Source: a bacterium (GTDB taxonomy: Bacteria; Patescibacteriota; Minisyncoccia; Phycocordibacterales; CAIZLB01). From it: a DNA stretch of 64,000 nt. The translations under genes were made by a program, and so were the position numbers. The stretch is from assembly GCA_037127815.1 (NCBI GenBank), contig JBAXXP010000004.1, positions 4,647 to 68,646 of the forward strand. The letters run 5' to 3'. Positions 4,602-61,600 of this stretch are shown here, in pieces. The notes beneath the pieces are model-generated. The model did no database searches and was not told the origin of the DNA. It saw only the letters and a program-made list of their open reading frames with translations. The number at the start of each line of letters is the position of its first letter. Position 1 is the stretch's first letter.

Positions 4602-4985
4602 ATGAAAGAATTTCAACAAGAAAACGATAGAAAAGACAAAATATACTCTAAATGGGCTTTACTTGTACTTTTGATAATGATTATCCTTGTAATAAAGGGT
4701 CTTATTAGCATGTCTATTAAACAACGAGAAAGTGGGGAAGAGAAAAAACTGGTCGATATTAAAAGAGCTGAACTTCAGGAAAGGTATGATGTTTTGTCGG
4801 AAAAGGTTAATGAATTAAAAACTGATCAAGGGATGGAAAGGGAGATAAGGTCCAAATTTGATGTAGTTAAGCCTGGTGAGAGTGTAATTATGGTTGTGGA
4901 CAAGGAGGTTTCAGCACCAATCCCTGTAGAAACTAGCATTATCAAAAAACTGTGGAATGGTGTTGTTGGGGTCTTCAAGAAATAG
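4602..4985 (+). CDS. Septum formation initiator family protein (FtsB/DivIC-like)
   Basis: Single N-terminal TM helix followed by a coiled-coil. C-terminal MEREIRSKFDVVKPGESVIMVV resembles the FtsB EERARxELxMxRPGETxxRLV motif. Confidence 0.6.
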   Translation: MKEFQQENDRKDKIYSKWALLVLLIMIILVIKGLISMSIKQRESGEEKKLVDIKRAELQERYDVLSEKVNELKTDQGMEREIRSKFDVVKPGESVIMVVDKEVSAPIPVETSIIKKLWNGVVGVFKK

Positions 4986-5009: not shown

Positions 5010-5246
5010 ATGAAAATAATGATTTACAGCACGCCATCATGTACATTTTGTGTAATGGCCAAGGATTTTTTAAAAGCAAACAATATCCCATTTGAAGAAT
5101 TTAATGTTGCAGCTGATTTGGAAAAGCGCAAAGAGATGATTGAGAAGACTGGCCAGATGGGAGTTCCAGTTATAGATATTGATGGATCAGTTTTGATTGG
5201 TTTCGATAAGCAATTGATTGCACAGAAGGTTGGTATTAAAATTTAA
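5010..5246 (+). CDS. Glutaredoxin-like small redox protein (YruB/NrdH-like)
   Basis: 78 aa with a CTFC CxxC motif near the N-terminus (YSTPSCTFCVMAKDFL) and a thioredoxin-fold-like spacing. Confidence 0.65.
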   Translation: MKIMIYSTPSCTFCVMAKDFLKANNIPFEEFNVAADLEKRKEMIEKTGQMGVPVIDIDGSVLIGFDKQLIAQKVGIKI

Positions 5247-6117: not shown

Positions 6118-6260
6118 CTCAATAAAGGTATATCTGAGGATACGCCAATTCTCTGCTAAGAATTGGCTCTGCTTACTGCCGTTCGCAAGTTCCTCAGATA
6201 CACCTTTGTTTCATTGGAGATTATACAAATGCATGGTTTTGGGTTAGTATTATCAACAAC

Positions 6261-8907: not shown

Positions 8908-9381
8908 TTACCTGACCTCAGAATTTGTCTTCATAATGGATTCAAAAGCCTCCAGAACGTATTGTGACAAATTAGTATCTCTTAGGTGAGGCTCATAGAT
9001 TGCAAAATCAGCCGTTATCATCTTCAGACAATTTTCTGCAGTAGAATCCCAGACTATCTGAAACAGGATGTTGCCTAAGTTCATTCCATGTTCAGTAAAG
9101 ACAGGTCTCTTTGTTGCAGCCTTTATCCTGTAGGTGTACGTTGTGGGTAACTTTTTCCCGCTAGAATTTTGAATATTGATATCAATCCAGCTCTCCCAAA
9201 GCAAAAACCATATGCCAAATTTTCCTTCAATAATCTCGATAGTAATTGTTGCTTTATTTATATCGAGCCCCAATTCTTTTTCTAATTCGTCTCCGCAGTC
9301 TTCTGACCCAATAATTTGCCATTCTGCATCAGGTGCAGTAAATGGCTTCACCATAGACTTTAATGTACTTTCAGTTGTCAT
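8908..9381 (-). CDS. Hypothetical protein (157 aa), possibly SRPBCC-like fold
   Basis: ORF with moderately elevated GC and no confident family match. Confidence 0.4.
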   Translation of the reverse strand: MTTESTLKSMVKPFTAPDAEWQIIGSEDCGDELEKELGLDINKATITIEIIEGKFGIWFLLWESWIDINIQNSSGKKLPTTYTYRIKAATKRPVFTEHGMNLGNILFQIVWDSTAENCLKMITADFAIYEPHLRDTNLSQYVLEAFESIMKTNSEVR

Positions 9382-9442: not shown

Positions 9443-9494
9443 GAATGAAAAATTTGGGGTCAGGCACTGTGGTGCCTGACCCCAAATTTCATTC
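9443..9494. repeat. Palindromic repeat element copy 1 (core GGGGTCAGGCAC-TGTG-GTGCCTGACCCC, arms extend with AAATTT); also serves as terminator of Hsp20 gene
   Basis: 28-bp core with a perfect 12-bp stem at 9456-9483. Near-identical copies occur at 44291-44318 and 55506-55533. Confidence 0.8.
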
Positions 9495-9515: not shown

Positions 9516-10049
9516 TTAAATACTTTTAACCCTAACCTTCATTTGTCTGTCCTTATCAACTCTTGGAAGTTTTAAAGTTAGAATACCTTGTGACTCTATG
9601 GCTTCTGCGTGCTCGATATCAATTTCATGAGGAAGTTGAATAGTTCTTGAGAATGAACCCCAGTATAATTCTCTGTGAAAGTAATCATCATCGGAAACAA
9701 TTTTCTCTTCCTTCCTTATTCCCTTAAGTGTAATGGAGTCTCTAGTTAAATTAATTTCCAAATCTTCCTTTCTAACACCTGGAATCATAGCTTTCACAAT
9801 AACATCATCTTGTGTTTGATACACATCTACAGAAAGCTCACTATCAGCTGATGAATCATCTACCCACGATGAACTATTTTTATCATCAAACTTTGGATAA
9901 ATTTGTGCACTCTTTTTAGAAACTGCTGTAATAGAAGGTCTTACGTTTCTGGCTGCTGTAAAATCAAAATCTTCAGCCTCTTCTAATTGCTCATCTTCAT
10001 CGATGTTTACCGCGCCTGTTAGTCTTTCAAAAAAGGATCTTTTTTTCAT
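9516..10049 (-). CDS. Hsp20/alpha-crystallin family small heat-shock protein
   Basis: Alpha-crystallin domain: VDVYQTQDDVIVKAMIPGVRKEDLEINLTRDSITLKG ... FSRTIQLPHEIDIEHAEAIESQGILTLKLPR. Confidence 0.85.
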   Translation of the reverse strand: MKKRSFFERLTGAVNIDEDEQLEEAEDFDFTAARNVRPSITAVSKKSAQIYPKFDDKNSSSWVDDSSADSELSVDVYQTQDDVIVKAMIPGVRKEDLEINLTRDSITLKGIRKEEKIVSDDDYFHRELYWGSFSRTIQLPHEIDIEHAEAIESQGILTLKLPRVDKDRQMKVRVKSI

Positions 10050-10688: not shown

Positions 10689-11426
10689 CTAGAACTGCTT
10701 TATCTGCTTAACTTTCTCCAGTGACAAAATCAACAATATAATAGATATCCAAACAAATGAAAATGCAATAAACATATTCTGCTCATCGCTTATTACAATT
10801 ATGTAATTAAAAATAGTATGTATAACTCCCGCAACAAGTAGCCCAAGAAAGGCTAGTGAGAATTTACCAAATTTTCCCCTATAAAAACCATATCCAATAA
10901 AAATAGAGAATACCCCGGATGCTGCAACATGAAGGAGACTAGCTCCCATAAAACGAGCGGCTCCTGTCATTATGCTTGCAACCAGGTCTCCTCTAAATAA
11001 TGGAGTTAATAAAAATAAAGTATTCTCCATGGCCGCAAAACCAAGTGATACACTCATTAAGTATATAAAACTATCAATAGGGTGATTAAAAATTGTCTTA
11101 CTTCGTAATGCAATAAACCAAGCCCCGCCAAACTTAACAGCTTCCTCAATTAATGCCCAAATATAAATGGCATGTAAGTCACTGTCTTTCAAATTAAAAA
11201 GTCCAACAGATATTTTTTGAAGCGGATACACAACAAAAACTCCACACATTCCTACAACAAAGGACAAAAAGATAATATCCTTAGGTTCTTTGTGATCATT
11301 TGCTTCATGCATCCAAAACCATAACCAAAACATAGCAGGTAAAACACCTCCCACTAAGGCATAGGCAAAAACCTCTATTGCAAACAGAGGAGCTCCTTGT
11401 AATTGGTTTATTAAGTAGTTGGCCAT
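10689..11426 (-). CDS. PrsW-family intramembrane metalloprotease-like membrane protein
   Basis: Polytopic membrane protein with ALIEEAVKF (EExxK), GFAAMEN (FxxxE) and two conserved His in TM helices (LLHVAASG, VIHTIFNY), as in the PrsW/CAAX protease family. Confidence 0.55.
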   Translation of the reverse strand: MANYLINQLQGAPLFAIEVFAYALVGGVLPAMFWLWFWMHEANDHKEPKDIIFLSFVVGMCGVFVVYPLQKISVGLFNLKDSDLHAIYIWALIEEAVKFGGAWFIALRSKTIFNHPIDSFIYLMSVSLGFAAMENTLFLLTPLFRGDLVASIMTGAARFMGASLLHVAASGVFSIFIGYGFYRGKFGKFSLAFLGLLVAGVIHTIFNYIIVISDEQNMFIAFSFVWISIILLILSLEKVKQIKQF

Positions 11427-13816
11427 TTTTCGGTCATTATCAATTCTCGAGTTTTAAGCTCTTTTGGAAGAAGTGACCAAAGTTCTTGAGTTACATGAGG
11501 CATAAATGGATGTAGTGTCTTTACAATCATCGCAAGTGTTTCAAGTAAGAATTTTGCGCGAGATTTTTTCATCGCAACAGCTTCTATATTTGATTCATCG
11601 TTATTTGCAAAAATTTCTTTACTACTTTCTAAAATGACATCAGCAAACTCCTTCCATGTATAATTATACAGGTCTTCTGCAACAATGTGAATCTTTAAAT
11701 TGTCCATATTTGTTGATATCGATTTAAAAACTTCATTTCTCTTTTCAATTAACGCTAAATCAGCTTCAGTGAAAGATATATTTGTCTTATCTTCGTCCAC
11801 ACCGTTACTTGCAACATCATGCATTCCTTCGGTTGAAGTTAAAATAAATCTAGTAACATTCCAAATTTTGTTTGCAAAGTGTTTGTATCCCTTAATTTTA
11901 TTTTCATCGATTTTACTATCAGTTCCTGGTGCTGTTCCAAAAACAAGTGACATTCTACCGGCATCCATTCCAAATTTTTGAGCAATTTCTATTGGATCGA
12001 TTCCATTACCTAATGTCTTTGAAAACTTTCTTCCTTTCATATCACGAACCATTCCAGTGAATAGAACTTTACTGAAGGGTATTGTTCCAAGGACATAACC
12101 TGTCATTAAAATCATACGTGCTACCCAGAAGAAAATAATGTCATGTCCAGTAACAAGAAGGTTTGTTGGATGATATATTGCAAAATCACTTTGTGGATCA
12201 TTTGCTTTTGCAGGCCATCCCATTGTTGAGAAACTCCAAAGACCAGAAGAGAACCATGTGTCTAGCGTGTCTTCATCTTGAATCCATTGATCTGCGTCAT
12301 CGCCAGTTGGAGCTTCTAGTCCGCAATAAATATCAGATTTAGATGCCTCAGAATCTGCCTCCTGATTTATATTAGAACCTTTCTTATACCAAACGGGAAT
12401 TCTGTGTCCGTACCAGATTTGGCGAGAAATACACCAATCGTTCAAATTATCTATCCAATTAAAATATGTTTTAAGGAAGTGCTCAGGCATCATCTCAATT
12501 TGGCCACCCAGAACTGCCTTTTGCATAATTTCCTTTAATGTAGTTTCTGATCCAGATTCTATTCCATCAATATCAGAATGGGGGAGTTTGAATTTTTTAT
12601 TAACAGCAACAAACCATTGAAGCTTAGGAAGTGGCTCAATAATTCCACCAGTACGCTCGGCAGTAGATACTCTTTGATCAATTTCAGTTTCATCAATAAG
12701 TAAATCATTTTCTTTAAGCCAAGCAACAACAAGCTCTCGCGCTTCAGCAACTTTTTTACCAACAATCTCAGGAGAACCAATCATCATGCGAGCTTTTTCA
12801 TCAATAACCTGAACCATAGGTAAACCATGACGCATTGCAATTTGATAGTCAGTCATGCTGTGTGCTGGGGTAATACCAACAGCACCTGTTCCAAAATCCA
12901 TTTCAGCCTCATGGTCTGCAACAATTTTTATTTTAATTGGAGCACCACAAAAATCCATTGAATATTCTTTTCCAACAAACTCCTTATAACGAGGGTCCTC
13001 CGGGTTTACTGCAACAGCAACATCTCCCAGTTTTGTTTCAGGACGAGTTGTTGAAATAGCGATAGGGAAGTCTTTACTATATTTGAAAGTATAAAACTTT
13101 GCCTTTCTGTCTTCATAAACTATTTCATCATCTGAAATTGTTGTTTGACCTTTTGGGTCCCAGTTAATAACTCTATTTTTTTTGAAAATTAGACCATCGT
13201 CATACATTTTTTTGAAAACAGTTCTAACTGCAAAGTTTCTTTCCTCATCTAATGTGAAGGCTTCTCTTGACCAATCAACAGAAGCCCCAATTGTCTGAAG
13301 TTGAGAAACAATTGTATCGTGACTTTGCTTTGCAAAAGTATCAACTCGCTTAAGTAACTCCTCTCTACCTAAATCATGTCTATTCAAACCTTCCGCCTTT
13401 TGAATATTTTTCTCAACCATTGATTGTGTTGCAATTGAGGCATGGTCCGTTCCAGGAATCCAAAGTACTCTATTTCCTTTCATTCGTTTGTATCTAATTA
13501 CGATGTCTTGCGTAGTGAACCCAAGAGCGTGTCCCATATGAAGTGTTCCAGTTACGTTTGGAGGAGGGAGAATAATACTATAAACAGGAGCATCAGCTTT
13601 AGTGATTCCTTCTTTAATACAAACATCTGGATTGTAAAATCCACTTTCACGTTCTTCTTTTTGAACTCGAGGTTCCACCTCAGTTGGATCATAAGGCTTT
13701 AGAAGTTGAGCTGGGATATTTGGGGCATAATGAGTTTTTTGCTCTGATGTGTCCGTTTTCTTATTATTTTCAGTATTTGCATCTGTGTTTGATGCGATGT
13801 TTGTATCTTGGCTCAT
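11411..13816 (-). CDS. valS: Valyl-tRNA synthetase
   Basis: PPNVTGTLHMGHAL HIGH motif. GTDHASIATQ is a ValRS signature. KFSKTLGN is the KMSKS motif. At 801 aa the C-terminal coiled-coil domain seems to be missing. Confidence 0.85.
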   Translation of the reverse strand: MSQDTNIASNTDANTENNKKTDTSEQKTHYAPNIPAQLLKPYDPTEVEPRVQKEERESGFYNPDVCIKEGITKADAPVYSIILPPPNVTGTLHMGHALGFTTQDIVIRYKRMKGNRVLWIPGTDHASIATQSMVEKNIQKAEGLNRHDLGREELLKRVDTFAKQSHDTIVSQLQTIGASVDWSREAFTLDEERNFAVRTVFKKMYDDGLIFKKNRVINWDPKGQTTISDDEIVYEDRKAKFYTFKYSKDFPIAISTTRPETKLGDVAVAVNPEDPRYKEFVGKEYSMDFCGAPIKIKIVADHEAEMDFGTGAVGITPAHSMTDYQIAMRHGLPMVQVIDEKARMMIGSPEIVGKKVAEARELVVAWLKENDLLIDETEIDQRVSTAERTGGIIEPLPKLQWFVAVNKKFKLPHSDIDGIESGSETTLKEIMQKAVLGGQIEMMPEHFLKTYFNWIDNLNDWCISRQIWYGHRIPVWYKKGSNINQEADSEASKSDIYCGLEAPTGDDADQWIQDEDTLDTWFSSGLWSFSTMGWPAKANDPQSDFAIYHPTNLLVTGHDIIFFWVARMILMTGYVLGTIPFSKVLFTGMVRDMKGRKFSKTLGNGIDPIEIAQKFGMDAGRMSLVFGTAPGTDSKIDENKIKGYKHFANKIWNVTRFILTSTEGMHDVASNGVDEDKTNISFTEADLALIEKRNEVFKSISTNMDNLKIHIVAEDLYNYTWKEFADVILESSKEIFANNDESNIEAVAMKKSRAKFLLETLAMIVKTLHPFMPHVTQELWSLLPKELKTRELIMTEKWPTT

Positions 13817-22755: not shown

Positions 22756-23718
22756 TTATCTCTTGCTTAAGCTGATGTAGATGTCCTCCAGTGCCTTAAC
22801 TGCATCACCAACTGCAATATTGTTTTGATGATATAAACCGTCTGTACAGTCACCAGAAGCCCAAATACCGGTAGTTTTGGTCCTTTGAGTGATTGGATTA
22901 ACGATAACCTTATTGTATTCATTTAGCTCCACAATGTCCTTTGCAAAACCAGTGGCTGGTAGCATTCCAATCTCAACAAAAATACCATTAACAGACAGCT
23001 CTTTTTCTTCACCTGTTTCTATATTTTTGTATGTTAAACCATTTACAAATTTCTCACCTTTAACTTCTAAAACTTCAGCAGGTGTTAATACACTCACATT
23101 TGGTCTTGCAAGAACTTTCTCTACGGTAATTGGATCAGCTCTAAATGTTTTACTTCTATTTATTAAAGTTACACTTTTACAATATGCAGAAAGTTGAGCA
23201 ACAGCTTCAAGCGCTGCGTTTCCTCCGCCAACTACAGCAACATCTGTATCAGAAAATAGGGGACCATCACAAGTGGCACAATATGTTAGACCTTTATGCT
23301 CAAAAGTATCTGCGCCTTTTGCTGGAAGTTTTCTATGTGCACTACCTGTTGCAATTAGAATAGATTTAGAAATAGCCTCAATATTTTCTCCACCAATTGT
23401 ACTGCCTATTGTTGAAACAAAAAGGGGATTCTGTTCTGTGTAGTCAGAATGTTTTTTTATTGAAATAACCCTGCTGCCTGTCATTATTTCTACGATGTCT
23501 CCCGCATACGCCTTAAGATGGTTTTCAAGTGACTTTGCAAGATCTGCTCCTGAAATTTTAACAGTTCCAATCCAATTTTCTATACCTTCAGATACAATAC
23601 TTTGTCCGCCAAAGTCCTCTGTAACAAGTAGGGTTTGTAATTTTTTACGAGAAGCATAAACGCCCGCCGCAACTCCAGCTGGCCCACCGCCAATAATTAA
23701 AAGATCATATGTTTTCAT
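22756..23718 (-). CDS. trxB: Thioredoxin reductase
   Basis: MKTYDLLIIGGGPAGVAAGVYA FAD-binding motif, redox-active CATCDG, and an NADPH-binding VVGGGNAALE motif. Confidence 0.9.
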   Translation of the reverse strand: MKTYDLLIIGGGPAGVAAGVYASRKKLQTLLVTEDFGGQSIVSEGIENWIGTVKISGADLAKSLENHLKAYAGDIVEIMTGSRVISIKKHSDYTEQNPLFVSTIGSTIGGENIEAISKSILIATGSAHRKLPAKGADTFEHKGLTYCATCDGPLFSDTDVAVVGGGNAALEAVAQLSAYCKSVTLINRSKTFRADPITVEKVLARPNVSVLTPAEVLEVKGEKFVNGLTYKNIETGEEKELSVNGIFVEIGMLPATGFAKDIVELNEYNKVIVNPITQRTKTTGIWASGDCTDGLYHQNNIAVGDAVKALEDIYISLSKR

Positions 23719-32655: not shown

Positions 32656-33048
32656 ATGATAAAAGATTTTGATAAATGGAACAGAAGAAAAAAGGCGATT
32701 GAGGATTCTGATTGCGAGGTATTATTTAGAACAAAGGAAATTTGGTGGTGTTATGTTGGCTTGAACATTAAAATTGAGTCGTGTGGAAAGGGTGATGATT
32801 ATAAACGCCCTGTACTTGTGTTGAGAAAATTATCTGCAAAAGGTTTCATTGGGATACCTCTTTCAACGCAAGCTAAGAAGGGCTCATGGTTCGTAGATTT
32901 AGAAGTGAATGGTAAAAAAGGATGTGCCCTTATTTATCAAATTAAAATGTTTAGCTCCAGTCGTATGTATTGGAGAATCTCAGTTCTTGATGATTCAAGT
33001 TTTGAAAGTGTAAAAGAAAAGCTCAGGTTGTTACTTGAGCTTTTCTAA
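32656..33048 (+). CDS. MazF/PemK-family toxin-like protein (divergent)
   Basis: EIWWCYVG...DYKRPVLVL...IGIPLSTQAK...ALIYQIKMFSSSR aligns with the MazF DIVWVDFD...HRPAVVL...CVPCTTQSK...ALADQVKSIAWRAR blocks. Confidence 0.5.
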   Translation: MIKDFDKWNRRKKAIEDSDCEVLFRTKEIWWCYVGLNIKIESCGKGDDYKRPVLVLRKLSAKGFIGIPLSTQAKKGSWFVDLEVNGKKGCALIYQIKMFSSSRMYWRISVLDDSSFESVKEKLRLLLELF

Positions 33049-39916: not shown

Positions 39917-40378
39917 TTGATGAAAATAATAAAAAATAAATTATTGAAAAAGGAAAACTTTGCGAAAAGCAAAAATACAGTTTGGTCTACCTTGTTGACA
40001 CTTGCGGTTGTATTATTTGGTTTTCTAAATGTTAGCAAAGTTTTTGCGCAAAGTACGGGTTCAAACCCTGTTTCAAATCTTTTACTTATCTGTACAACCC
40101 GATCAACTCCATGTGGATGGCAAGATTTAATTAATTTAATAAATGCCATGGTTCAATATGCTATTGAGTTAATAGGTATAGTCTTTGTTATAGTTCTATT
40201 GTATGCGGGTATGATGTATATAACTTCTGGTGGAGATGCATCAAAGGTTAAGAAAGCTAAGGATATGTTGTATAAAGTTGTTTGGGGAATGGTATATACC
40301 CTTTGTGCTTGGATTATTGTATACTTTATACTAACAAGCTTAGGCGTTGACCAAACTTTTTACGAAAAAATTATATAA
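39917..40378 (+). CDS. T4SS pilin-like (TrbC/VirB2-family-like) protein, paralog 1 of 6
   Basis: Cleavable signal peptide (...VSKVFAQS), then two hydrophobic helices separated by SGGDASKVKKAKDMLYKVVWGMVY, which is pilin-like two-TM topology. Confidence 0.6.
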   Translation: MMKIIKNKLLKKENFAKSKNTVWSTLLTLAVVLFGFLNVSKVFAQSTGSNPVSNLLLICTTRSTPCGWQDLINLINAMVQYAIELIGIVFVIVLLYAGMMYITSGGDASKVKKAKDMLYKVVWGMVYTLCAWIIVYFILTSLGVDQTFYEKII

Positions 40379-40387
40379 CAACATAAA

Positions 40388-40777
40388 ATGAAAAACACTA
40401 GATTAATCTTATTCATGGTTACAGGAGCTTTAATGCTTCTTGTTATCTTTGGTGTAGACTTTATAACCGCCCACTCAATTGCTTTTGCTCAAATAAATGA
40501 TGGTAAAATTCATAACCCCCTTGGTTCAACAACAACTCTCAGTCAGGTGCTTGGCATTGTTATATCTTCCGTTCAGGTTATTGCTGGAGTTTTGTCTGTT
40601 GTTTTCATTATAATCGCAGGTCTTAAGTTTGTATTGGCAAATGGTGATCCTGCAAAGATAAAGACAGCTAAATCAATGCTGCTTTATGTTGTAATAGGTA
40701 TTGCGATAATATTCGGTGCTCAGGCTATTGCCATAGTAGTTCAGACAACAATTAAGCAGGTTGGTAGCGGGCAATAA
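40388..40777 (+). CDS. T4SS pilin-like protein, paralog 2 of 6
   Basis: Signal peptide ending AFAQI; two TM helices with NGDPAKIKTAKSMLLYVVIGIAIIFG between them. Confidence 0.6.
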   Translation: MKNTRLILFMVTGALMLLVIFGVDFITAHSIAFAQINDGKIHNPLGSTTTLSQVLGIVISSVQVIAGVLSVVFIIIAGLKFVLANGDPAKIKTAKSMLLYVVIGIAIIFGAQAIAIVVQTTIKQVGSGQ

Positions 40778-40829
40778 AGTGTTTTACATCATCAGTCAAA
40801 TAAGACTATTATCAATATAATTTAAAAAA

Positions 40830-41144
40830 ATGTTAGAAAGTAAAAATTCACTCTTAGCTCAGGTTGGTAATGTAACAGACCTGAAAAGCCTTGTAGTTGG
40901 CATGATAGATATATTAGGAAGTTACGTTGTACCATTCATCGTTGCATTAGCACTTGTAGTTTTTTTGTGGGGAATATTTAGAACCATGACAGCTGCTGGC
41001 GATGGTAAGAAAAGACAGGAGGGTCTGGCATATATTACATACGGGATAATAGGCTTGGCTGTTATGATTTCAGTTTGGAGTTTGGTATATCTTCTAACCA
41101 CTACATTCTTTTCAGGCGGATTGATGATACCTCAGCTAAATTAA
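40830..41144 (+). CDS. T4SS pilin-like protein, paralog 3 of 6
   Basis: FLWGIFRTMTAAGDGKKRQEGLAYITYGIIGLAVMISVWSLVYLLTTTF is the shared core. Confidence 0.6.
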   Translation: MLESKNSLLAQVGNVTDLKSLVVGMIDILGSYVVPFIVALALVVFLWGIFRTMTAAGDGKKRQEGLAYITYGIIGLAVMISVWSLVYLLTTTFFSGGLMIPQLN

Positions 41145-41186
41145 TCTGATACATGGTAATATGATTATTATTAATTATAAAATACA

Positions 41187-41486
41187 ATGACAGGAGAAAT
41201 AGGAGCAAAGGGAGTAATAGTATTTCTAATTTCATTTATAAATGGAGTTGTAGGTTTTATAATAGGCCTAACTCTAGTTGTCTTTATATGGGGACTTTTC
41301 AAATTGATTTTTGCGAGCAGTGATTCAAAAGAGAGAGAGACGGCTAAAGGGTATATAGTTTGGGGAATTATCTCATTAGCTATCATGGTCTCTGTATGGG
41401 GGCTAGTTAATTTATTAACCTCATCTTTTGGTTTTGGTAGTGTTACTCCAATGGTGCCGGGATTCCCAAATACTTCTATATTTTAG
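41187..41486 (+). CDS. T4SS pilin-like protein, paralog 4 of 6
   Basis: FIWGLFKLIFASSDSKERETAKGYIVWGIISLAIMVSVWGLVNLLTSSF. Confidence 0.6.
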   Translation: MTGEIGAKGVIVFLISFINGVVGFIIGLTLVVFIWGLFKLIFASSDSKERETAKGYIVWGIISLAIMVSVWGLVNLLTSSFGFGSVTPMVPGFPNTSIF

Positions 41487-41605
41487 AATCCACAGTTTTT
41501 CTTTAATTGTGTATATAACTTTTAAATAATAGGGTATAATAGTATTAAGTGACGTTTATGTTGCTTAGTAAAAGATAACTTAGTATTTAATAAAATAATT
41601 TAATT

Positions 41606-41929
41606 ATGACAAATTCAACAACTGGAATTAGTGGACTTTACGGCCTTTTGGCCCAAGCTACTGATTTCACAAATAGACTTATTCCCTTTATCATTGGTCT
41701 TACTGTACTATTTTTCCTATGGGGTATTTTTAGATTGGTATTCTCAGCTAAGGATTCCGAAGCTAGAACAGAAGCTAGAGGCTATATAATTTGGGGGATT
41801 ATAGCTCTTGCTGTTATGGTTTCTGTATGGGGACTAGTTAACCTTTTAACAAGCACATTCAGTCTAAATCAAAATATTCCATCAGGTCCTGGTCTACCAC
41901 AAGCAGGAGGTTCAATTCAGCTTAAATAG
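41606..41929 (+). CDS. T4SS pilin-like protein, paralog 5 of 6
   Basis: FLWGIFRLVFSAKDSEARTEARGYIIWGIIALAVMVSVWGLVNLLTSTF. Confidence 0.6.
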   Translation: MTNSTTGISGLYGLLAQATDFTNRLIPFIIGLTVLFFLWGIFRLVFSAKDSEARTEARGYIIWGIIALAVMVSVWGLVNLLTSTFSLNQNIPSGPGLPQAGGSIQLK

Positions 41930-41945
41930 TAATTTATAACTAATT

Positions 41946-42239
41946 ATGTCAGGAACTGTACCACCAGCATTGATGACCCTTATAACCTCAATTAGTAGGT
42001 ATATTCTTAATCCACTTATTGTACTTGCTTTCGCGGTAGCTATGGTTGTTTTCACATGGGGAGTTTTTGATTATATAAAAGGAGCTTCAGATCCAAAAGC
42101 TAGAGAAACAGGCAGGAGTCACATTTTATGGGGTATTATTGGTATCGCTATTATGTTTTCTGTTTTTGGAATAATGAGAGTTATTTCAAACACAGTTGGA
42201 GGTCCGACAAGTCAGATTCAGAATATACAGAAGCTCTAG
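41946..42239 (+). CDS. T4SS pilin-like protein, paralog 6 of 6
   Basis: FTWGVFDYIKGASDPKARETGRSHILWGIIGIAIMFSVFGIMRVISNTV. Confidence 0.6.
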   Translation: MSGTVPPALMTLITSISRYILNPLIVLAFAVAMVVFTWGVFDYIKGASDPKARETGRSHILWGIIGIAIMFSVFGIMRVISNTVGGPTSQIQNIQKL

Positions 42240-42907: not shown

Positions 42908-44239
42908 TTATCGCCTTAGCCCTTTAGCAGAAGCCTCGCCGGCAACAAAACCTGTTGTCCAGCATAACTGAAGGCTAAAGCCTCCAGAAGGCCTGTCAAC
43001 GTTCAGTATATCGCCAACAAGGTATAGGTTGGGGAATAGGCGAGAGGACATGGTTTTAAAATCGACCTCATCAAGAGAAACTCCTCCGCTTGTAATTATT
43101 GCCTTGTCCACTCCCAGCAGTTTTTCAACATGAAGTGGTACATCCTTTAGTAGATTTATAAGTCTGATTCTCTCTTCTCTGGTAATGCTATTGCAGGCCT
43201 TTTCTGGATCAATTAATGATAGATCTACAATGATGGGTGCGACAGCAGAAGGTACGATATTTACAAGAGCATTTCTAAATTTCTTTTTATCATGTTCTTT
43301 AAATAGCTCTTGAAGTTTAGTATTTAAAACTCCATAGTCTTCTGATGGTAATAGGTCTAAGGAGACAGTAACTTCTCCATACTTCAGAAGATCTCCAATA
43401 TCTCTACTCATATTTAGTATTGTTGGTCCACTTACGCCCACGTGTGTGAAAAGAATTTTTCCCTTCTTAAAGAAATGTTTTTTACCATTTTGAAAAATGG
43501 AAATCTTTATATCTGTCATGCTAATACCAGCTAATTTTGGAACCCACTCGTCTTTTATTGCTAGTGGAACAAGTGAGGGAATAGGGTCAATTACAGTATG
43601 TCCTATACTTTTTAGCCACACAAAGCCATCGCCGGTTGAGCCGGTAAGAGGAGCGGAAGCACCACCGGTTGCAATGACTACACTTTTTCCATATATCACT
43701 TTTTTGCCCTTTAGTGTTATTCCAACTATTTTTCTAGTTGCAACTTCATCATTCTCTACAGCAATACCCATAACTGGGGAGTTGGATAAAACTTCAACTT
43801 TATTTTCTCTCATGTAATTCACTAGTACGTCCAAGACGGATTGTGATTTATTCGAAACAGGGAAGGTTCGTAATTCATTTTCTACCTTTGTCTCCATTCC
43901 GTATTTGTGAAAGAAATCCAGCGAGTCTTTTACACTATGTTGCGAGAAAGCAGAGAATAAAAATTTACCATCGTCTTTAAATCTTTCTAGAAACTTTCTA
44001 ATATCAAATTCCGAGTTTGTAACATTGCATCTTCCTCCTCCTGTAATTAAAAGTTTTCTACCTAGTGTTTCATTTTTTTCAATAAGAAGAACCTTAGCGC
44101 CACATTCTGCTGCTCTTCCTGCCGATATCATGCCAGCAGGTCCACCACCTACTACTATTACGTCCCATGGGGTATTAGTTTCCATTGAGGTTATATTAGC
44201 ATTTTTTGCTCGTTGACCCAAATAGATAGTAAAATACAT
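42908..44239 (-). CDS. HI0933/BaiN-family NAD(P)/FAD-dependent oxidoreductase
   Basis: WDVIVVGGGPAGMISAGRAAECGAKVLLIEKNETLGRKLLITGGGRCNVTN matches the N-terminus of this family. The true start is probably the internal Met near 44185. Confidence 0.8.
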   Translation of the reverse strand: MYFTIYLGQRAKNANITSMETNTPWDVIVVGGGPAGMISAGRAAECGAKVLLIEKNETLGRKLLITGGGRCNVTNSEFDIRKFLERFKDDGKFLFSAFSQHSVKDSLDFFHKYGMETKVENELRTFPVSNKSQSVLDVLVNYMRENKVEVLSNSPVMGIAVENDEVATRKIVGITLKGKKVIYGKSVVIATGGASAPLTGSTGDGFVWLKSIGHTVIDPIPSLVPLAIKDEWVPKLAGISMTDIKISIFQNGKKHFFKKGKILFTHVGVSGPTILNMSRDIGDLLKYGEVTVSLDLLPSEDYGVLNTKLQELFKEHDKKKFRNALVNIVPSAVAPIIVDLSLIDPEKACNSITREERIRLINLLKDVPLHVEKLLGVDKAIITSGGVSLDEVDFKTMSSRLFPNLYLVGDILNVDRPSGGFSLQLCWTTGFVAGEASAKGLRR

Positions 44240-44290
44240 CTCATTGACTATTGATTACAATTAGCATAACCTGTCAGGTAGATAATATTT

Positions 44291-44318
44291 GGGGTCAGGC
44301 ACCATGGTGCCTGACCCC
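44291..44318. repeat. Palindromic repeat element copy 2 (GGGGTCAGGCAC-CATG-GTGCCTGACCCC)
   Basis: Perfect 12-bp stem flanked by ATTT/AAATT, in the divergent intergenic region between 42908..44239(-) and 44329..44814(+). Confidence 0.8.
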
Positions 44319-44328
44319 AAATTAAACA

Positions 44329-44814
44329 ATGAAGTACCAAACAATAGATAATAGTATGAACATTATTCAAATCGTATCAGATATTTTAGCTCAAACAGTA
44401 GAAATTCACGGCTTACCTGAGTCACGCCTAGTGGCGTACTCACCGGGTTGGGGCACAGTAGTCGTTCCTAAATTTGATGTCTTAGCGGAGGATTTGCTTA
44501 AAATCGTTCGTCTTCAAACTCTTCTCAAAATAGTTGAAAGTAATACAGGTCTTCAGTCACAAGAAAGTGTTCTTGAGGACATTGGTAATGGGGTTCATGA
44601 TGACAATCCAAGTTTTAATAATTTTTTGCGGAACGATGGCGCGATTCGCCGTAGTGTTTATGTCCAAGTTATAACTTTGGAGAGATTGATTGTTGAATTG
44701 ATTCAGTCATTTATACCAGCTGAAAGCGACAGATTTGATGTTGCGTATCGTATTAGCACGGAAAAGCAAATTATGTTCCATGAAGTCTGTTTTTTTGGAG
44801 GATCGTCTGATTGA
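44329..44814 (+). CDS. Hypothetical protein (161 aa)
   Basis: ORF only. Followed by a hairpin terminator at about 44865-44900. Confidence 0.35.
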   Translation: MKYQTIDNSMNIIQIVSDILAQTVEIHGLPESRLVAYSPGWGTVVVPKFDVLAEDLLKIVRLQTLLKIVESNTGLQSQESVLEDIGNGVHDDNPSFNNFLRNDGAIRRSVYVQVITLERLIVELIQSFIPAESDRFDVAYRISTEKQIMFHEVCFFGGSSD

Positions 44815-47122: not shown

Positions 47123-47485
47123 ATGTATATACCTGAACAAGGAAATATTATCAAACTAAACTTCAATCCAATTAAAGGACACGAGCAAGGTGGATACAGA
47201 CCGGCTGTAGTAATAACCAAAAAGATATATAATTCTAAATCTAATACTATTTTGATTTGTCCAATCACTAGTAAAATTAAGAATTATCCGTATGAAGTGA
47301 CCATCGAGATGGAGGGGTTCACTGATAACGATAATCTGGGATTGGTGAGCGACATTTCCGGAGTAGTATTAACAGACCATATTAAGTCTGCAGACTATAA
47401 AGCAAGAAAAGTTAATTTTTCAGGTAGATTGAAAGAGATTGTTGTGTGGAATATTTTAGCTAAAATTAAAACTTTGATAGATTAA
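47123..47485 (+). CDS. MazF/PemK-family endoribonuclease toxin
   Basis: GNIIKLNFNPIKGHEQGGYRPAVVITKK...ILICPITSK matches the MazF GDIVWVDFDPTKGSEQAGHRPAVVLS...CVPCTTQ blocks. Confidence 0.75.
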   Translation: MYIPEQGNIIKLNFNPIKGHEQGGYRPAVVITKKIYNSKSNTILICPITSKIKNYPYEVTIEMEGFTDNDNLGLVSDISGVVLTDHIKSADYKARKVNFSGRLKEIVVWNILAKIKTLID

Positions 47486-53721: not shown

Positions 53722-54348
53722 ATGCGAACATATGTATTTATTGATGCCTCAAATTTATTTTATGGTGGTAGAAAATCTCTCGGGTGGAGTATTGATCATG
53801 AAAAATTAGCATTGTATTTTAAGTCTAAGTATGAAGCGAATAAGGTCTATTATTTTGGAGGTGTTGAAATACATGATTTTCCATTTGATTATATAAAGAA
53901 TGAAACTGTACCAATAAATGACGTTTCAATTTATTTGGTAGATTTCATTGAAAAAAATAAGTATAACTTATCTGATGTAATTATAACTCTTATAAATAGA
54001 TATTTAAAAAGAATCAGATTCTACATGAAATTGGAGAAATTTGGATATATTCTTGTTCTTAAGCCAGTAAAGACTCATGTGGATGGAAAAGGCATAAGTC
54101 AGAAAAAGGCGAATTGTGATGTGGATATGACCCTTTATTTGATACGTTACAAAGATGATTATGATAGAGCTTTGGTTCTTACGGGGGATGGAGACTTTTT
54201 ATCAGCGCTCAAATATTTACGAGACAATAATAAAGAAGTTCTAGTGTTAGCAAGATCTCCACGCACAGCAAAAGAAATAAAAAAGTTTGCTGGAGATAAG
54301 TTTTTGGACTTTGAGTTCCTAAGGGAAATAATCAGGATGGATGAATAG
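53722..54348 (+). CDS. NYN/LabA-like domain protein, paralog 2 of 3
   Basis: MRTYVFIDASNLFYGG, ANCDVDMTLYLI, and VLTGDGDFLSALKYLRDNNKEVLVLARSPRTAKEI. Close paralog of 437..1105. Confidence 0.7.
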   Translation: MRTYVFIDASNLFYGGRKSLGWSIDHEKLALYFKSKYEANKVYYFGGVEIHDFPFDYIKNETVPINDVSIYLVDFIEKNKYNLSDVIITLINRYLKRIRFYMKLEKFGYILVLKPVKTHVDGKGISQKKANCDVDMTLYLIRYKDDYDRALVLTGDGDFLSALKYLRDNNKEVLVLARSPRTAKEIKKFAGDKFLDFEFLREIIRMDE

Positions 54349-54485: not shown

Positions 54486-55499
54486 ATGGCATTATTTTCT
54501 AAAAAGCTCGGAATTGACCTTGGAACATCTAATACTCTTGTTTTTCTTCCTGGGCGTGGAATTGTTCTAAACGAGCCTTCAGTTGTTGCAGTTTCTGAGC
54601 AAGATAATCAGATTCTGGCTGTTGGAATAGACGCAAAGGATATGATTGGAAAGACACCAGACAATATTATTGCATATAGACCAATGCGCGATGGTGTTAT
54701 CGCTGACTATAGAGTTACTGAGGCTATGCTTAGATATTTCATAAACAAGGCTCTTGGCAGATGGAATATTTGGAAGCCAGACGTGATGGTCTCAGTTCCT
54801 GCTGGTGTTACTTCAACTGAAAGACGTGCTGTAGTTGAGGCTGCAATTAAGGCAGGTGCTAAAAATGCATATGTTGTTAAGGAACCTATTCTTGCTGCAA
54901 TTGGCGCTGGTATTTCTATTCAAGAGCCAAATGGACACATGATTGTAGACATTGGTGGTGGAACAACAGACGTTGCCGTTATTTCCTTGGGAGGAATTGT
55001 GACATGTAATTCTGTTAAATGTGCAGGAAATAGAATTGATCTTGCAATTGCGGATTACATTAAGAAAACCTATAACCTAGCGATCGGGGATAAGACAGCA
55101 GAGGAGATGAAAATAAACGTAGGGTCCGCCGTTACAATGGACGATGAACTTTCAATGACAATTAAGGGTCGCGATTTTCTAACCGGCCTTCCTCGATCTG
55201 TTGAAATTAAAACAAATGAAGTTGTTAAGGCAATTGCAAAAGAATTAAGAGATATGATCAAGGCAATCAAGGATGTTCTTCAAGAGACTCCACCTGAGCT
55301 TGCGTCTGATATTATTGATAACGGGATAATAATGACTGGGGGATCTTCACAGTTACGTAATCTTCCAGAGCTTGTTTATAGAAGAACTGGAGTTAAAGCA
55401 AAGCTTGCTGATGATCCACTTTACTGTGTTGCTAAAGGAACAGGTATCGCCCTGGAGCACTTGAATACATATAAGAGAACAATTATTTCCAAGCGATAA
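54486..55499 (+). CDS. mreB: Rod shape-determining protein MreB
   Basis: LGIDLGTSNTLVF, VIAVGIDAKDMIGKTP and MIVDIGGGTTDVAVISLGG actin-fold motifs. Confidence 0.9.
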   Translation: MALFSKKLGIDLGTSNTLVFLPGRGIVLNEPSVVAVSEQDNQILAVGIDAKDMIGKTPDNIIAYRPMRDGVIADYRVTEAMLRYFINKALGRWNIWKPDVMVSVPAGVTSTERRAVVEAAIKAGAKNAYVVKEPILAAIGAGISIQEPNGHMIVDIGGGTTDVAVISLGGIVTCNSVKCAGNRIDLAIADYIKKTYNLAIGDKTAEEMKINVGSAVTMDDELSMTIKGRDFLTGLPRSVEIKTNEVVKAIAKELRDMIKAIKDVLQETPPELASDIIDNGIIMTGGSSQLRNLPELVYRRTGVKAKLADDPLYCVAKGTGIALEHLNTYKRTIISKR

Positions 55500-55505
55500 A
55501 GATTT

Positions 55506-55533
55506 GGGGTCAGGCACCATGGTGCCTGACCCC
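55506..55533. repeat. Palindromic repeat element copy 3 (GGGGTCAGGCAC-CATG-GTGCCTGACCCC) between mreB and holB
   Basis: Perfect 12-bp stem flanked by GATTT/AAAAC. It probably acts as a terminator after mreB. Confidence 0.8.
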
Positions 55534-55544
55534 AAAACATACAA

Positions 55545-56339
55545 ATGAAATTAAATCATCACGCATATATAATCGAAAAAGTTTCCAGTGATGGTATTTC
55601 CCCTTTGCTAAAATTTATCTCAAATACCCTAGAGCTTGAATCAGGTAAGGACCCTCATGTGTCTCCAAATTTTTTACATATAAAAAGTAACCAATTAAAT
55701 GTGGATGAGGCAGGGAAGGTGGTGGCTTTTAATTCGCAAAAATCATTTGGACAAAACGGCGGAGGAAACAAAGTTGCTTTGATTGAGATAAACGGTGCGG
55801 GGCATCAAGCTCAAAACGCATTGCTTAAAACTTTGGAGGAGCCATTTCCAAATACATATTTTTTTATAACAATATCCTCAGGCTCACTCTTACTCCCAAC
55901 AATTCAGTCTAGAGTTGAGACGCACGCAATGGCGGATTTTTTAGATAATTTTGAAAATGGGGGAAACATGGCCAGTAAAAAGAATGAAGGGAACGCGGAG
56001 TTGAAATCAGAACTGAAGCCAGAGCTGAGGTTGATAGTTTCAGACTCAGTTTCAAGATTCTTTGGATCAAGTATGGCTGAGAGAATTGAAATGGTTAAGA
56101 AGATGGTTGATGATGCTGGAAAGGAGGGCGAAGATGACTCATCTAAGCTATTTCAGTTTCTACATGATATAGAAATTACATTGAAAGATTTGGAAAAGTC
56201 TAAGCTAAACAGGAGAATGAGTAAGGATGAGCTGGAGACCTTGATTACCGTTAGAGAGTACTTCGCGGACGCTGGGGCCTCAAAAAAGATGCTTTTGGAG
56301 TATTTATCGCTAAAATTGCCTATTATAAAAAACCTATAG
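55545..56339 (+). CDS. holB: DNA polymerase III delta-prime subunit-like (clamp loader), degenerate P-loop
   Basis: NALLKTLEEP and TIQSRV clamp-loader motifs. No Walker A motif is present. Confidence 0.6.
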   Translation: MKLNHHAYIIEKVSSDGISPLLKFISNTLELESGKDPHVSPNFLHIKSNQLNVDEAGKVVAFNSQKSFGQNGGGNKVALIEINGAGHQAQNALLKTLEEPFPNTYFFITISSGSLLLPTIQSRVETHAMADFLDNFENGGNMASKKNEGNAELKSELKPELRLIVSDSVSRFFGSSMAERIEMVKKMVDDAGKEGEDDSSKLFQFLHDIEITLKDLEKSKLNRRMSKDELETLITVREYFADAGASKKMLLEYLSLKLPIIKNL

Positions 56340-59819: not shown

Positions 59820-60443
59820 TTGTTTGGTGATAGAATAACTGGATACATGAATATATTTTTACTGATTGATGGTGAGAATTTGAAAGGAAAAATTAAAGCT
59901 ATTTTTAAGGAAAATGGTAAAGAAAAACCCGTCTGGCATGAGTATGATTTTAGGGGCCTGTTTGATAAAGTGCTTGGAGGTATGACTGTTGGCCGCAGTA
60001 TCTTTTATTTCGCTCGTATTAAGGAGCATAAGGAAAGTATGCATAAATCTAAGGAATTGATTGAAGAGCAACGCCAACTTAAGACACATCTTGAAAAACA
60101 AGGATTTGAAGTTATTTTGAGTGGGCAGGTTAGAGGTCATATGGAGACTAGTAGAGATGGTAAGCAGGCACTGATATTTAAGGAGAAGGGTGTAGATGTA
60201 AAATTGGCTGTTGATATGGTAAGTCTTTCTTGTGACAAGAAAGTTGATGAAATAATCCTTGGTAGCTCAGACTCTGACCTGCAACCAGCCATAAAAGAGG
60301 TTCGTGATAGAAATATAGGTTGCATATACTTAGGGTTTGAAGCAAAACCAAACAAGGGTATTTCCTACAATTCGAATAGAACAATTCTTATAAGAGACTC
60401 TGAAGTCTTTGATTTTGAAAGAATTCAACAAAAACTTGTATAG
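59820..60443 (+). CDS. NYN/LabA-like domain protein, paralog 3 of 3 (more divergent)
   Basis: IFLLIDGENLKGK N-terminus, GVDVKLAVDMV, and ILGSSDSDLQPAIKEV at the positions of the NYN Asp motifs. Confidence 0.6.
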   Translation: MFGDRITGYMNIFLLIDGENLKGKIKAIFKENGKEKPVWHEYDFRGLFDKVLGGMTVGRSIFYFARIKEHKESMHKSKELIEEQRQLKTHLEKQGFEVILSGQVRGHMETSRDGKQALIFKEKGVDVKLAVDMVSLSCDKKVDEIILGSSDSDLQPAIKEVRDRNIGCIYLGFEAKPNKGISYNSNRTILIRDSEVFDFERIQQKLV

Positions 60444-61561: not shown

Positions 61562-61600
61562 CCCCCCCCCCGCACGCTCTAGCGCGTGCGGGGGATTTTT
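61562..61600 (+). terminator. Rho-independent terminator with a C10 homopolymer: CCCCCCCCCCGCACGC-TCTAGC-GCGTGCGGGGG + ATTTTTT
   Basis: 11-bp GC stem plus a T-run, 26 bp after the 61536 stop. The poly-C10 run lies at 61562-61571. Confidence 0.75.

Follow-up and report, generated by a model that had tools for sequence, protein, structure and literature searches.

Why should a CPR bacterium carry the same long, GC-rich palindrome at three separate intergenic positions within 64 kb, and to what class of element does it belong? The window (by which we mean the whole 64-kb stretch of DNA that was analyzed) comes from a CPR organism, as judged from the names of its BipA relatives (Candidatus Parcubacteria, Taylorbacteria and Paceibacterota). 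The original prediction had described three near-identical copies of a 28-bp palindrome, and a search with the pattern GGGGTCAGGCACNNNNGTGCCTGACCCC, allowing up to three mismatches, did return exactly three matches to the perfect palindrome GGGGTCAGGCAC-N4-GTGCCTGACCCC, with cores at 9456-9483, 44291-44318 and 55506-55533. No match occurred in 100 dinucleotide-preserving shuffles (chance expectation 0 vs. 3 seen), and mismatch-tolerant searches of the 64 kb found neither degenerate copies nor, within genes, solitary half-sites. The arms are 75% G+C and the window about 36%, so the compositional contrast reported at the outset is real.

Copy 1 (9443..9494, core 9456-9483; none of the three copies is assigned a strand) has the loop TGTG and AAATTT/AAATTT flanks that extend it to an 18-bp perfect stem; additional flank pairing with a 2-nt bulge gives a hairpin of about 52 nt. 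It lies 32 nt past the stop codon of an Hsp20 gene (9516-10049, minus strand) and 75 nt before an ORF of unknown function (8908-9381, minus strand; 157 aa). Copy 2 (44287..44322, core 44291-44318; loop CATG, 16-bp perfect arms) stands between divergent genes: an HI0933-like flavoprotein gene (42908-44239, minus strand), whose start is 52 nt away, and a second unknown ORF (44329-44814, plus strand; 161 aa), whose first ATG is 10 nt away, or 37 nt if the ATG at 44356 of an alternative gene call is used. It is directly upstream of a promoter-like TAAACA-18-GATAAT (44323-44352). Copy 3 (55503..55536, core 55506-55533; loop CATG, 15-bp perfect arms) occupies the 45-nt spacer between mreB (54486-55499) and a holB-like gene (55545-56339), 6 nt past the end of mreB and, on the other side, 11 nt short of the holB-like start codon; this copy is intercistronic, and a promoter would not fit into the spacer. 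The loops and the intergenic contexts, the latter taken from the ORF listing and Pfam, agree with the first description. The flanks do so only in part: AAATTT...AAATTT is found at copy 1 and not at copies 2 and 3, the general rule being at least three complementary flanking bases (TTT/AAA). The two unknown ORFs, beside copies 1 and 2, are not paralogs. Distances of 11-35 kb separate the copies, which occur singly in their intergenic spacers and do not form the tandem repeats with unique spacers of similar length that make up a CRISPR array.

The same window has other features of its own. Six consecutive small genes (97-153 aa) at 39917-42239 match PF18895 (T4SS_pilin/TrbC) and adjoin an SBP_bac_8 gene, an unusual tandem pilin array. 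Three paralogs with an NYN domain (PIN-like RNase) are encoded at 437-1105, 53722-54348 and 59820-60443, one of them directly upstream of mreB; the gene table of at least one sister species (P0011 contig) also has an NYN-domain gene there. Two PemK/MazF-type toxin genes are found at 32656-33048 and 47123-47485.

The window copies, with identical flanks, were present in every independent assembly of the population that we fetched (ENA, JGI, NCBI, Logan), which excludes an assembly artefact; two of the Logan contigs break off within the palindrome, as a repeat would lead one to expect. An exact scan of a metagenome collection found the palindrome in 21 stretches, six of which were low-GC (0.36-0.37), came from the same lake series and contributed five new sites, none overlapping the window. 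These five, all exact copies on low-GC lake contigs, lie between dut and tmk, between ORF188 (with a terminator) and SHMT, between RNase J and MFS, between methyltransferase and CAP, and between ORF203 (with a terminator) and rpsP; they are placed in the window population by sample, GC content and tetranucleotide similarity only, and the last of these is non-discriminating, since the contigs fit the same population but sister species score nearly as high. With them the family is clearly multi-copy, exceeding the three copies first seen (at least eight sites), and strictly intergenic (8/8). The metagenome counts are lower bounds, as the collection missed a known copy on Ga0194038_1002559. The unbiased density of 3 per 64 kb (about 1 per 20 kb) would scale to some 45 copies per Mb, and the copy number is probably in the tens, not hundreds. 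The neighbors are unrelated housekeeping genes (Hsp20, holB, tmk, SHMT, MFS, CAP, rpsP) with no common theme.

What is repeated is a perfect hairpin. All 24 positions of the 12-nt arms are invariant across the eight sites, and in 8/8 copies the stem runs 3 bp past the core, so that the family unit is a 34-bp perfect palindrome, TTT-GGGGTCAGGCAC-CATG-GTGCCTGACCCC-AAA. The three flanking positions are TTT/AAA at six sites, TGT/ACA at one and ATT/AAT at one, and the flank pairing thus shows two double-sided changes (UA>AU and UA>GC). Every copy is centered in a palindromic hexamer; the ends read TTTGGGG.../...CCCCAAA, with a perfect dyad through the center (CCATGG). The predicted RNA folds of the window copies range from -29 to -36 kcal/mol with z from -6.7 to -9.1 (copy 1: -36.3 kcal/mol, z -9.1; copy 2: -30.1 kcal/mol, z -6.7; copy 3: -29.3 kcal/mol, z -6.7). 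About 96 kb of this population contains some 36 strong hairpins with perfect arms of at least 9 bp, and of these the palindrome alone is repeated; the others are unique and mostly canonical A-tract/stem/T-tract terminators. Rfam returned only tRNAs at the gathering threshold, and in E-value mode only generic miRNA-hairpin noise far under threshold.

The position of the hairpin is best read against the way in which genes start in this genome. Across the whole window an SD-like motif precedes 8 of 65 genes, even on a loose criterion, and TATAAT-like boxes, often TG-extended, precede many genes, mostly by about 5-11 nt before the ATG (leaderless-type starts occur, for example, at 4602, 5010, 11411-13816 on the minus strand, 22756-23718 on the minus strand, 33222, 38524 and 49317). 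Boxes so near the ATG imply that the mRNAs are predominantly leaderless; in the literature searched, no paper joined Parcubacteria, leaderless and Shine-Dalgarno. A -10 box follows the palindrome at six sites: TGCTACAAT and TGATACAAT at the two L129 sites (L129a and L129b), TGGTATAAA at L142, TGCTAAAAT and TAATAT at L139a and L139b, and GATAAT at copy 2. With the box on the 3' side of the palindrome, the downstream leaderless mRNAs would start past the palindrome and would not contain it. The distance from the palindrome end to the ATG runs from 10-11 nt up to about 75 nt. The palindrome fills the slot between transcription units, copy 3 being the exception (intercistronic).

Sister species, whose syntenic loci we reached through HolB homologues (69-75% identity), tell where such a unit may come from. 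The closest relatives with DNA compared have about 75% HolB and 95% BipA identity. Conservation in related genomes had been one of the points raised by the original prediction, and the exact 28-mer was missing from about 78 kb of sister DNA, so the palindrome is not conserved as such; longer foldbacks are present there instead. A 90-bp foldback at L163 6644-6733 has an outer stem of about 18-19 bp. Over its terminal 16 nt it is identical to each half of the 28-mer, and inside it lies a 21-bp perfect palindrome that makes a canonical A7/T6 terminator. In the same sister contig the mreB-holB spacer holds a foldback of 78 bp with 22-bp arms, and terminal inverted repeats of 22 bp are recorded at 5104-5179. 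A second 90-bp foldback, at L150 17692-17781, has 19-bp arms (terminal inverted repeats GGGGTCAGGCCCCGTGCAT), ends 10 nt before an ATG and shares the first 10 nt of the 28-mer, and a half element at L150 7210-7227 lies directly past the mreB stop, as copy 3 does. The inner module of L163 6644-6733 matches this half element at 18/18 positions and the L150 17692-17781 element at 15/16. Taken together, the sister foldbacks are 78-90 bp long with 19-22-bp terminal inverted repeats and predicted RNA folds of -48 to -66 kcal/mol. The mreB-holB spacer of L147 has a different GC-rich hairpin; the gene table of the P0153 contig lists mreB and holB as overlapping, which we did not count as evidence. The 28-mer is kin to these longer elements: it corresponds to their ends, fused together, in a family of foldbacks that turns over within the clade, a relationship that the original prediction could not have known.

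A second recurrent palindrome, GCCA(A/G)TT(C/T)TC-(a/t)gc(a/t)-GA(G/A)AA(C/T)TGGC, is present in the window at 6144-6167 and in the sister species at L147 13958-14059 and 15005-15080 and at L150 13796-13897, 14707-14810 and 5945-5966. There it forms the apex of foldbacks of about 100 bp with 26-28-bp unique arms, upstream of BipA and of MFP/FtsX/ABC transporter genes, and may serve as a conserved operator or as an RNA element.

The same arm also appears well beyond the CPR. Among the matches listed for an Acidimicrobiales MAG there are at least seven loci of GGGGTCAGGCAC-N5-GTGCCTGACCCC, three of them with a third direct half-site, and the metagenome scan yielded at least four distinct sites with extra outer arms on Omnitrophota-like contigs (so named by their GcvT relatives). 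A second motif, GGGGTC(A/T)GACCCC, is found in the Omnitrophota-like contigs and in L163, and a second arm type, GGGGTCAGACCC, in a CPR sister species and Omnitrophota-like contigs. In the relatives and in the other phyla the arms are 5 nt or more than 50 nt apart. On the high-GC contigs the palindrome lies 7-30 nt past stop codons, among housekeeping genes, with no common neighboring gene. Isolated matches in unrelated genomes and phages were set aside as background, because control stems of the same composition are as common in viral contigs as the real stem: three such controls gave 5, 51 and 14 matches, and the real stem gave 22, of which 17 come from a single phage locus. The multi-copy families with a common 12-mer in CPR, Acidimicrobiales and Omnitrophota-like DNA are a different matter. 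It is possible, though we regard it as doubtful, that a hairpin with the ends GGGGTCAG(G/A)C(A/C)C is a horizontally mobile or trans-recognized module common to these phyla; what speaks for it is the identical 12-nt arm in stop-codon-proximal multi-copy families of all three groups, together with the second arm type found in both a CPR sister species and the Omnitrophota-like contigs. Such a system might insert at the centers of short palindromes, which would give nested palindromes.

Several other observations came from these scans. At L130 700-790 (Omnitrophota-like) the order is as in the CPR: stop codon, palindrome, a TTGTTGTATAAT box and an ATG 8-9 nt on, i.e., a leaderless gcvT. Its right arm CTGACC is 16 nt upstream of TATAAT, the -35 position; a -35 role for this arm was rejected, as the spacing fits one Omnitrophota-like site and no CPR site. 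The orthologous pair L130/L131 is about 95% similar overall and so is uninformative on palindrome conservation. A loose scan of genome contigs (10-nt arms, loop 3-8) gave at least 120 matches, mostly one conserved Collinsella terminator, AAAAAA-GGTCAGGCAC-NNN-GTGCCTGACC-TGCAAACTTCTG, kept at an apparently single orthologous locus across dozens of species (L001-L118, about 85 loci). In the Lentisphaerales MAG CAZUAY01 (L020, L024, L035, L042, L070, L083, L119) and in CAZKJH01 (L097, L111) there is a high-copy contig-end element, in which a tandem heptamer array (GACTAGC-like) is followed by a 40-bp palindrome, GTAATCGGTCAGGCACAG-CCCCC-CTGTGCCTGACCGATTAC; only a 10-nt core is held in common, and we rejected these palindromes as relatives, the shared core being taken as a coincidence in a different element.

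How, then, does the family compare with known small mobile repeats? A RAYT/IS200-like gene had been suggested as a possible partner, and none was found in the window or the related loci. Pfam annotations of the window contained no transposase, HUH enzyme or recombinase and no Y1/RAYT-type family, and the fetched loci had no transposase of any kind. When IS200 TnpA and the E. coli RAYT served as tblastn queries, the window and the CPR, Acidimicrobiales and Omnitrophota-like loci gave no match, whereas a Collinsella locus, the positive control, did. The copies have no target-site duplication, the flanks being inverted and not direct repeats (TTT/AAA, TGT/ACA, ATT/AAT), and no direct repeats were found at the L150 or L163 elements. 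Terminal inverted repeats around a non-coding element of 50-500 bp, as in a MITE, exist in the sister species only, the window copies being one terminal repeat joined to the other. The fetched loci, viral contigs and plasmids contained no IS that shares these ends and could be the parent; viral contigs had no match to the exact 12-nt arms and plasmids no full match. Since there is no empty-site/filled-site pair among the relatives compared (the closest being those at about 75% HolB and 95% BipA identity), we infer mobility from distribution and sequence identity only. REP elements carry a GTAG or CGTC tetranucleotide at one end (PMC3733652). No such tag was found on the palindrome, nor is its stem imperfect; as a short (28-34 bp, within the 20-40 bp range) palindromic extragenic repeat it does resemble them. 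Without a target-site duplication and without the GTAG/CGTC tag, neither the MITE nor the REP/RAYT model fully fits.

The REP/BIME resemblance claimed at the start therefore holds for a dispersed extragenic family of GC-rich palindromes and does not extend to REP/BIME proper. Like the REP/REPIN-RAYT elements of E. coli, Pseudomonas and Stenotrophomonas, the copies are short GC-rich palindromes scattered among housekeeping genes, lack a target-site duplication and form stable hairpins (here predicted) at mRNA 3' ends and between cistrons; unlike them, they are perfect where REPs are imperfect, have no GTAG/CGTC head, occur as singlets and not as REPIN doublets, have no RAYT gene in the DNA searched and probably number tens rather than hundreds. 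Correia/NEMIS elements of Neisseria, ERIC and RUP are foldback MITE-like repeats. The L163 and L150 foldbacks recall the Correia/NEMIS elements in their size, terminal inverted repeats and long predicted RNA hairpins, in their location in intergenic spacers by start and stop codons, and in carrying promoter-like (TGTTGTAATAT) and terminator-like modules; they differ in having no TA or other target duplication and no known IHF-type internal site or parent IS, and the window species retains only the 28-34-bp ends.

Could these instead be ordinary, possibly bidirectional intrinsic terminators that have come to be alike in sequence, for example by duplication or gene conversion? The stem is strong and GC-rich, and usually 3' of a gene (a co-directional gene is upstream at 7/8 sites), the high-GC genomes place the palindrome just past stop codons, and in L163 the same arms enclose a canonical terminator; in a consensus scan copy 1 scored as terminator-like in the sense (Hsp20) direction. 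It was, however, the only window copy to do so, copy 2 being terminator-like on neither strand and copy 3 on the antisense strand only, and U-rich sense flanks are present at about 3/8 sites. Furthermore, the flank polarity (T-tract/stem/A-tract) is the reverse of that of ordinary terminators in this genome, which are all unique, whereas the palindrome is repeated. Copy 2, between divergent genes, has no 3' end on which a terminator could act; the 45-nt spacer around copy 3 leaves the following gene no space for a promoter; and two related sites already have a canonical terminator ahead of the palindrome (L142 3928-3951 and L129 7925-7951). The terminator role first proposed thus fares badly, and we consider this explanation unlikely. 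The canonical terminators at window 61567-61594 and L129 7925-7951 have an arm in common (CCCCGCACGC), which is either a second small hairpin family or chance. An operator for a dimeric DNA-binding regulator, with the adjacent genes as its regulon, would account for the perfect dyad (center CCATGG included), for the 24/24 invariant arm positions and for the sites being 10-75 nt from a start codon, several of them abutting the -10 box or filling the -35 zone. But the distance to promoters and ATGs is inconsistent (10-11 to about 75 nt), the adjacent genes are functionally unrelated, and real regulons have degenerate sites, of which there are none here; arms that are 5 nt or more than 50 nt apart in relatives and other phyla describe a hairpin rather than a dimer site of fixed spacing, and the complementary flank changes likewise favor a stem. 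We judge it distinctly improbable.

Two further possibilities have even less in their favor. The 12-4-12 geometry resembles site I of serine recombinases, as 11-6-11 resembles dif, and a 28-bp dyad in multiple dispersed copies would suit the crossover sites of a site-specific recombinase; yet no recombinase gene is near any copy, the symmetric center gives no polarity, the arm spacing differs among lineages and all strain variants keep the same gene order around the sites, which leaves this very unlikely indeed. Inverted pairs of a 12-nt unit downstream of genes, with an occasional third direct unit in Acidimicrobiales, also recall the DNA-uptake signals (DUS) that form terminators in Neisseria; CPR bacteria are thought to depend on DNA uptake, and the window encodes its cluster of T4SS_pilin-type small proteins. 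However, known DUS/USS are found at about one per kb and are mostly single, and the palindrome, at about 1 per 20 kb, is some 20-fold too sparse, with no solitary half-sites in genes, so that an uptake signal seems hardly credible, the least probable of the readings considered.

On balance we favor, with some confidence, the reading of the three copies as members of a lineage-specific miniature palindromic (REP/MITE-like) family that matches fused foldback termini and lies between transcription units. According to this reading, the palindrome would be two termini, fused head to head, of the 78-90-bp foldbacks that survive in sister Parcubacteria-type species, having arisen by central deletion or by nested insertion. 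Copies would settle in the slot bounded by the stop codon or terminator of the upstream gene and by the -10 box of the downstream, mostly leaderless gene, and might spread by a trans-acting mechanism that needs only the ends of about 15 nt and the hairpin, for which the best analogy would be a single-strand mechanism of the HUH/Y1 type. Alternatively, identical arms with no degenerate relatives in the window could reflect strong sequence-specific selection, e.g., by a binding protein. With a miniature palindromic family, read-through from the upstream gene would produce a very stable RNA hairpin that could protect the 3' end, be a site of processing or attenuate transcription in part, insulating neighboring units much as REPs do in E. 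coli and Correia elements in Neisseria; by this analogy it probably protects or attenuates 3' ends, and neither canonical intrinsic termination nor 5'-UTR regulation would be expected of it.

In well-studied bacteria, small palindromic repeats influence how operons are expressed, how plastic the genome is and how well it assembles. The reduced genomes of CPR/Patescibacteria are usually seen as poor in repeats and mobile DNA. In the literature searched, small palindromic repeats were not described in CPR/Patescibacteria, in keeping with the original prediction, and the papers that contain the palindrome string appear, by their titles, to be unrelated eukaryotic or virology studies. The family is a real, lineage-specific, REP/MITE-like one, new for CPR within that literature; it lacks the REP tag and the target-site duplication of MITEs, with no RAYT gene found in the DNA searched.

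A hairpin family that has recently multiplied in one Parcubacteria-type species offers a handle on the gain and loss of non-coding DNA, because the sister species retain its longer foldback relatives. It explains contig breaks in CPR assemblies and is relevant to the insulation of transcription units from one another in a largely leaderless, SD-poor genome. If the sharing of 12-nt ends across phyla is real, it would point either to an unrecognized, hairpin-specific mobilization system or to DNA exchange between these ultra-small bacteria and their neighbors, whether co-resident or host bacteria.
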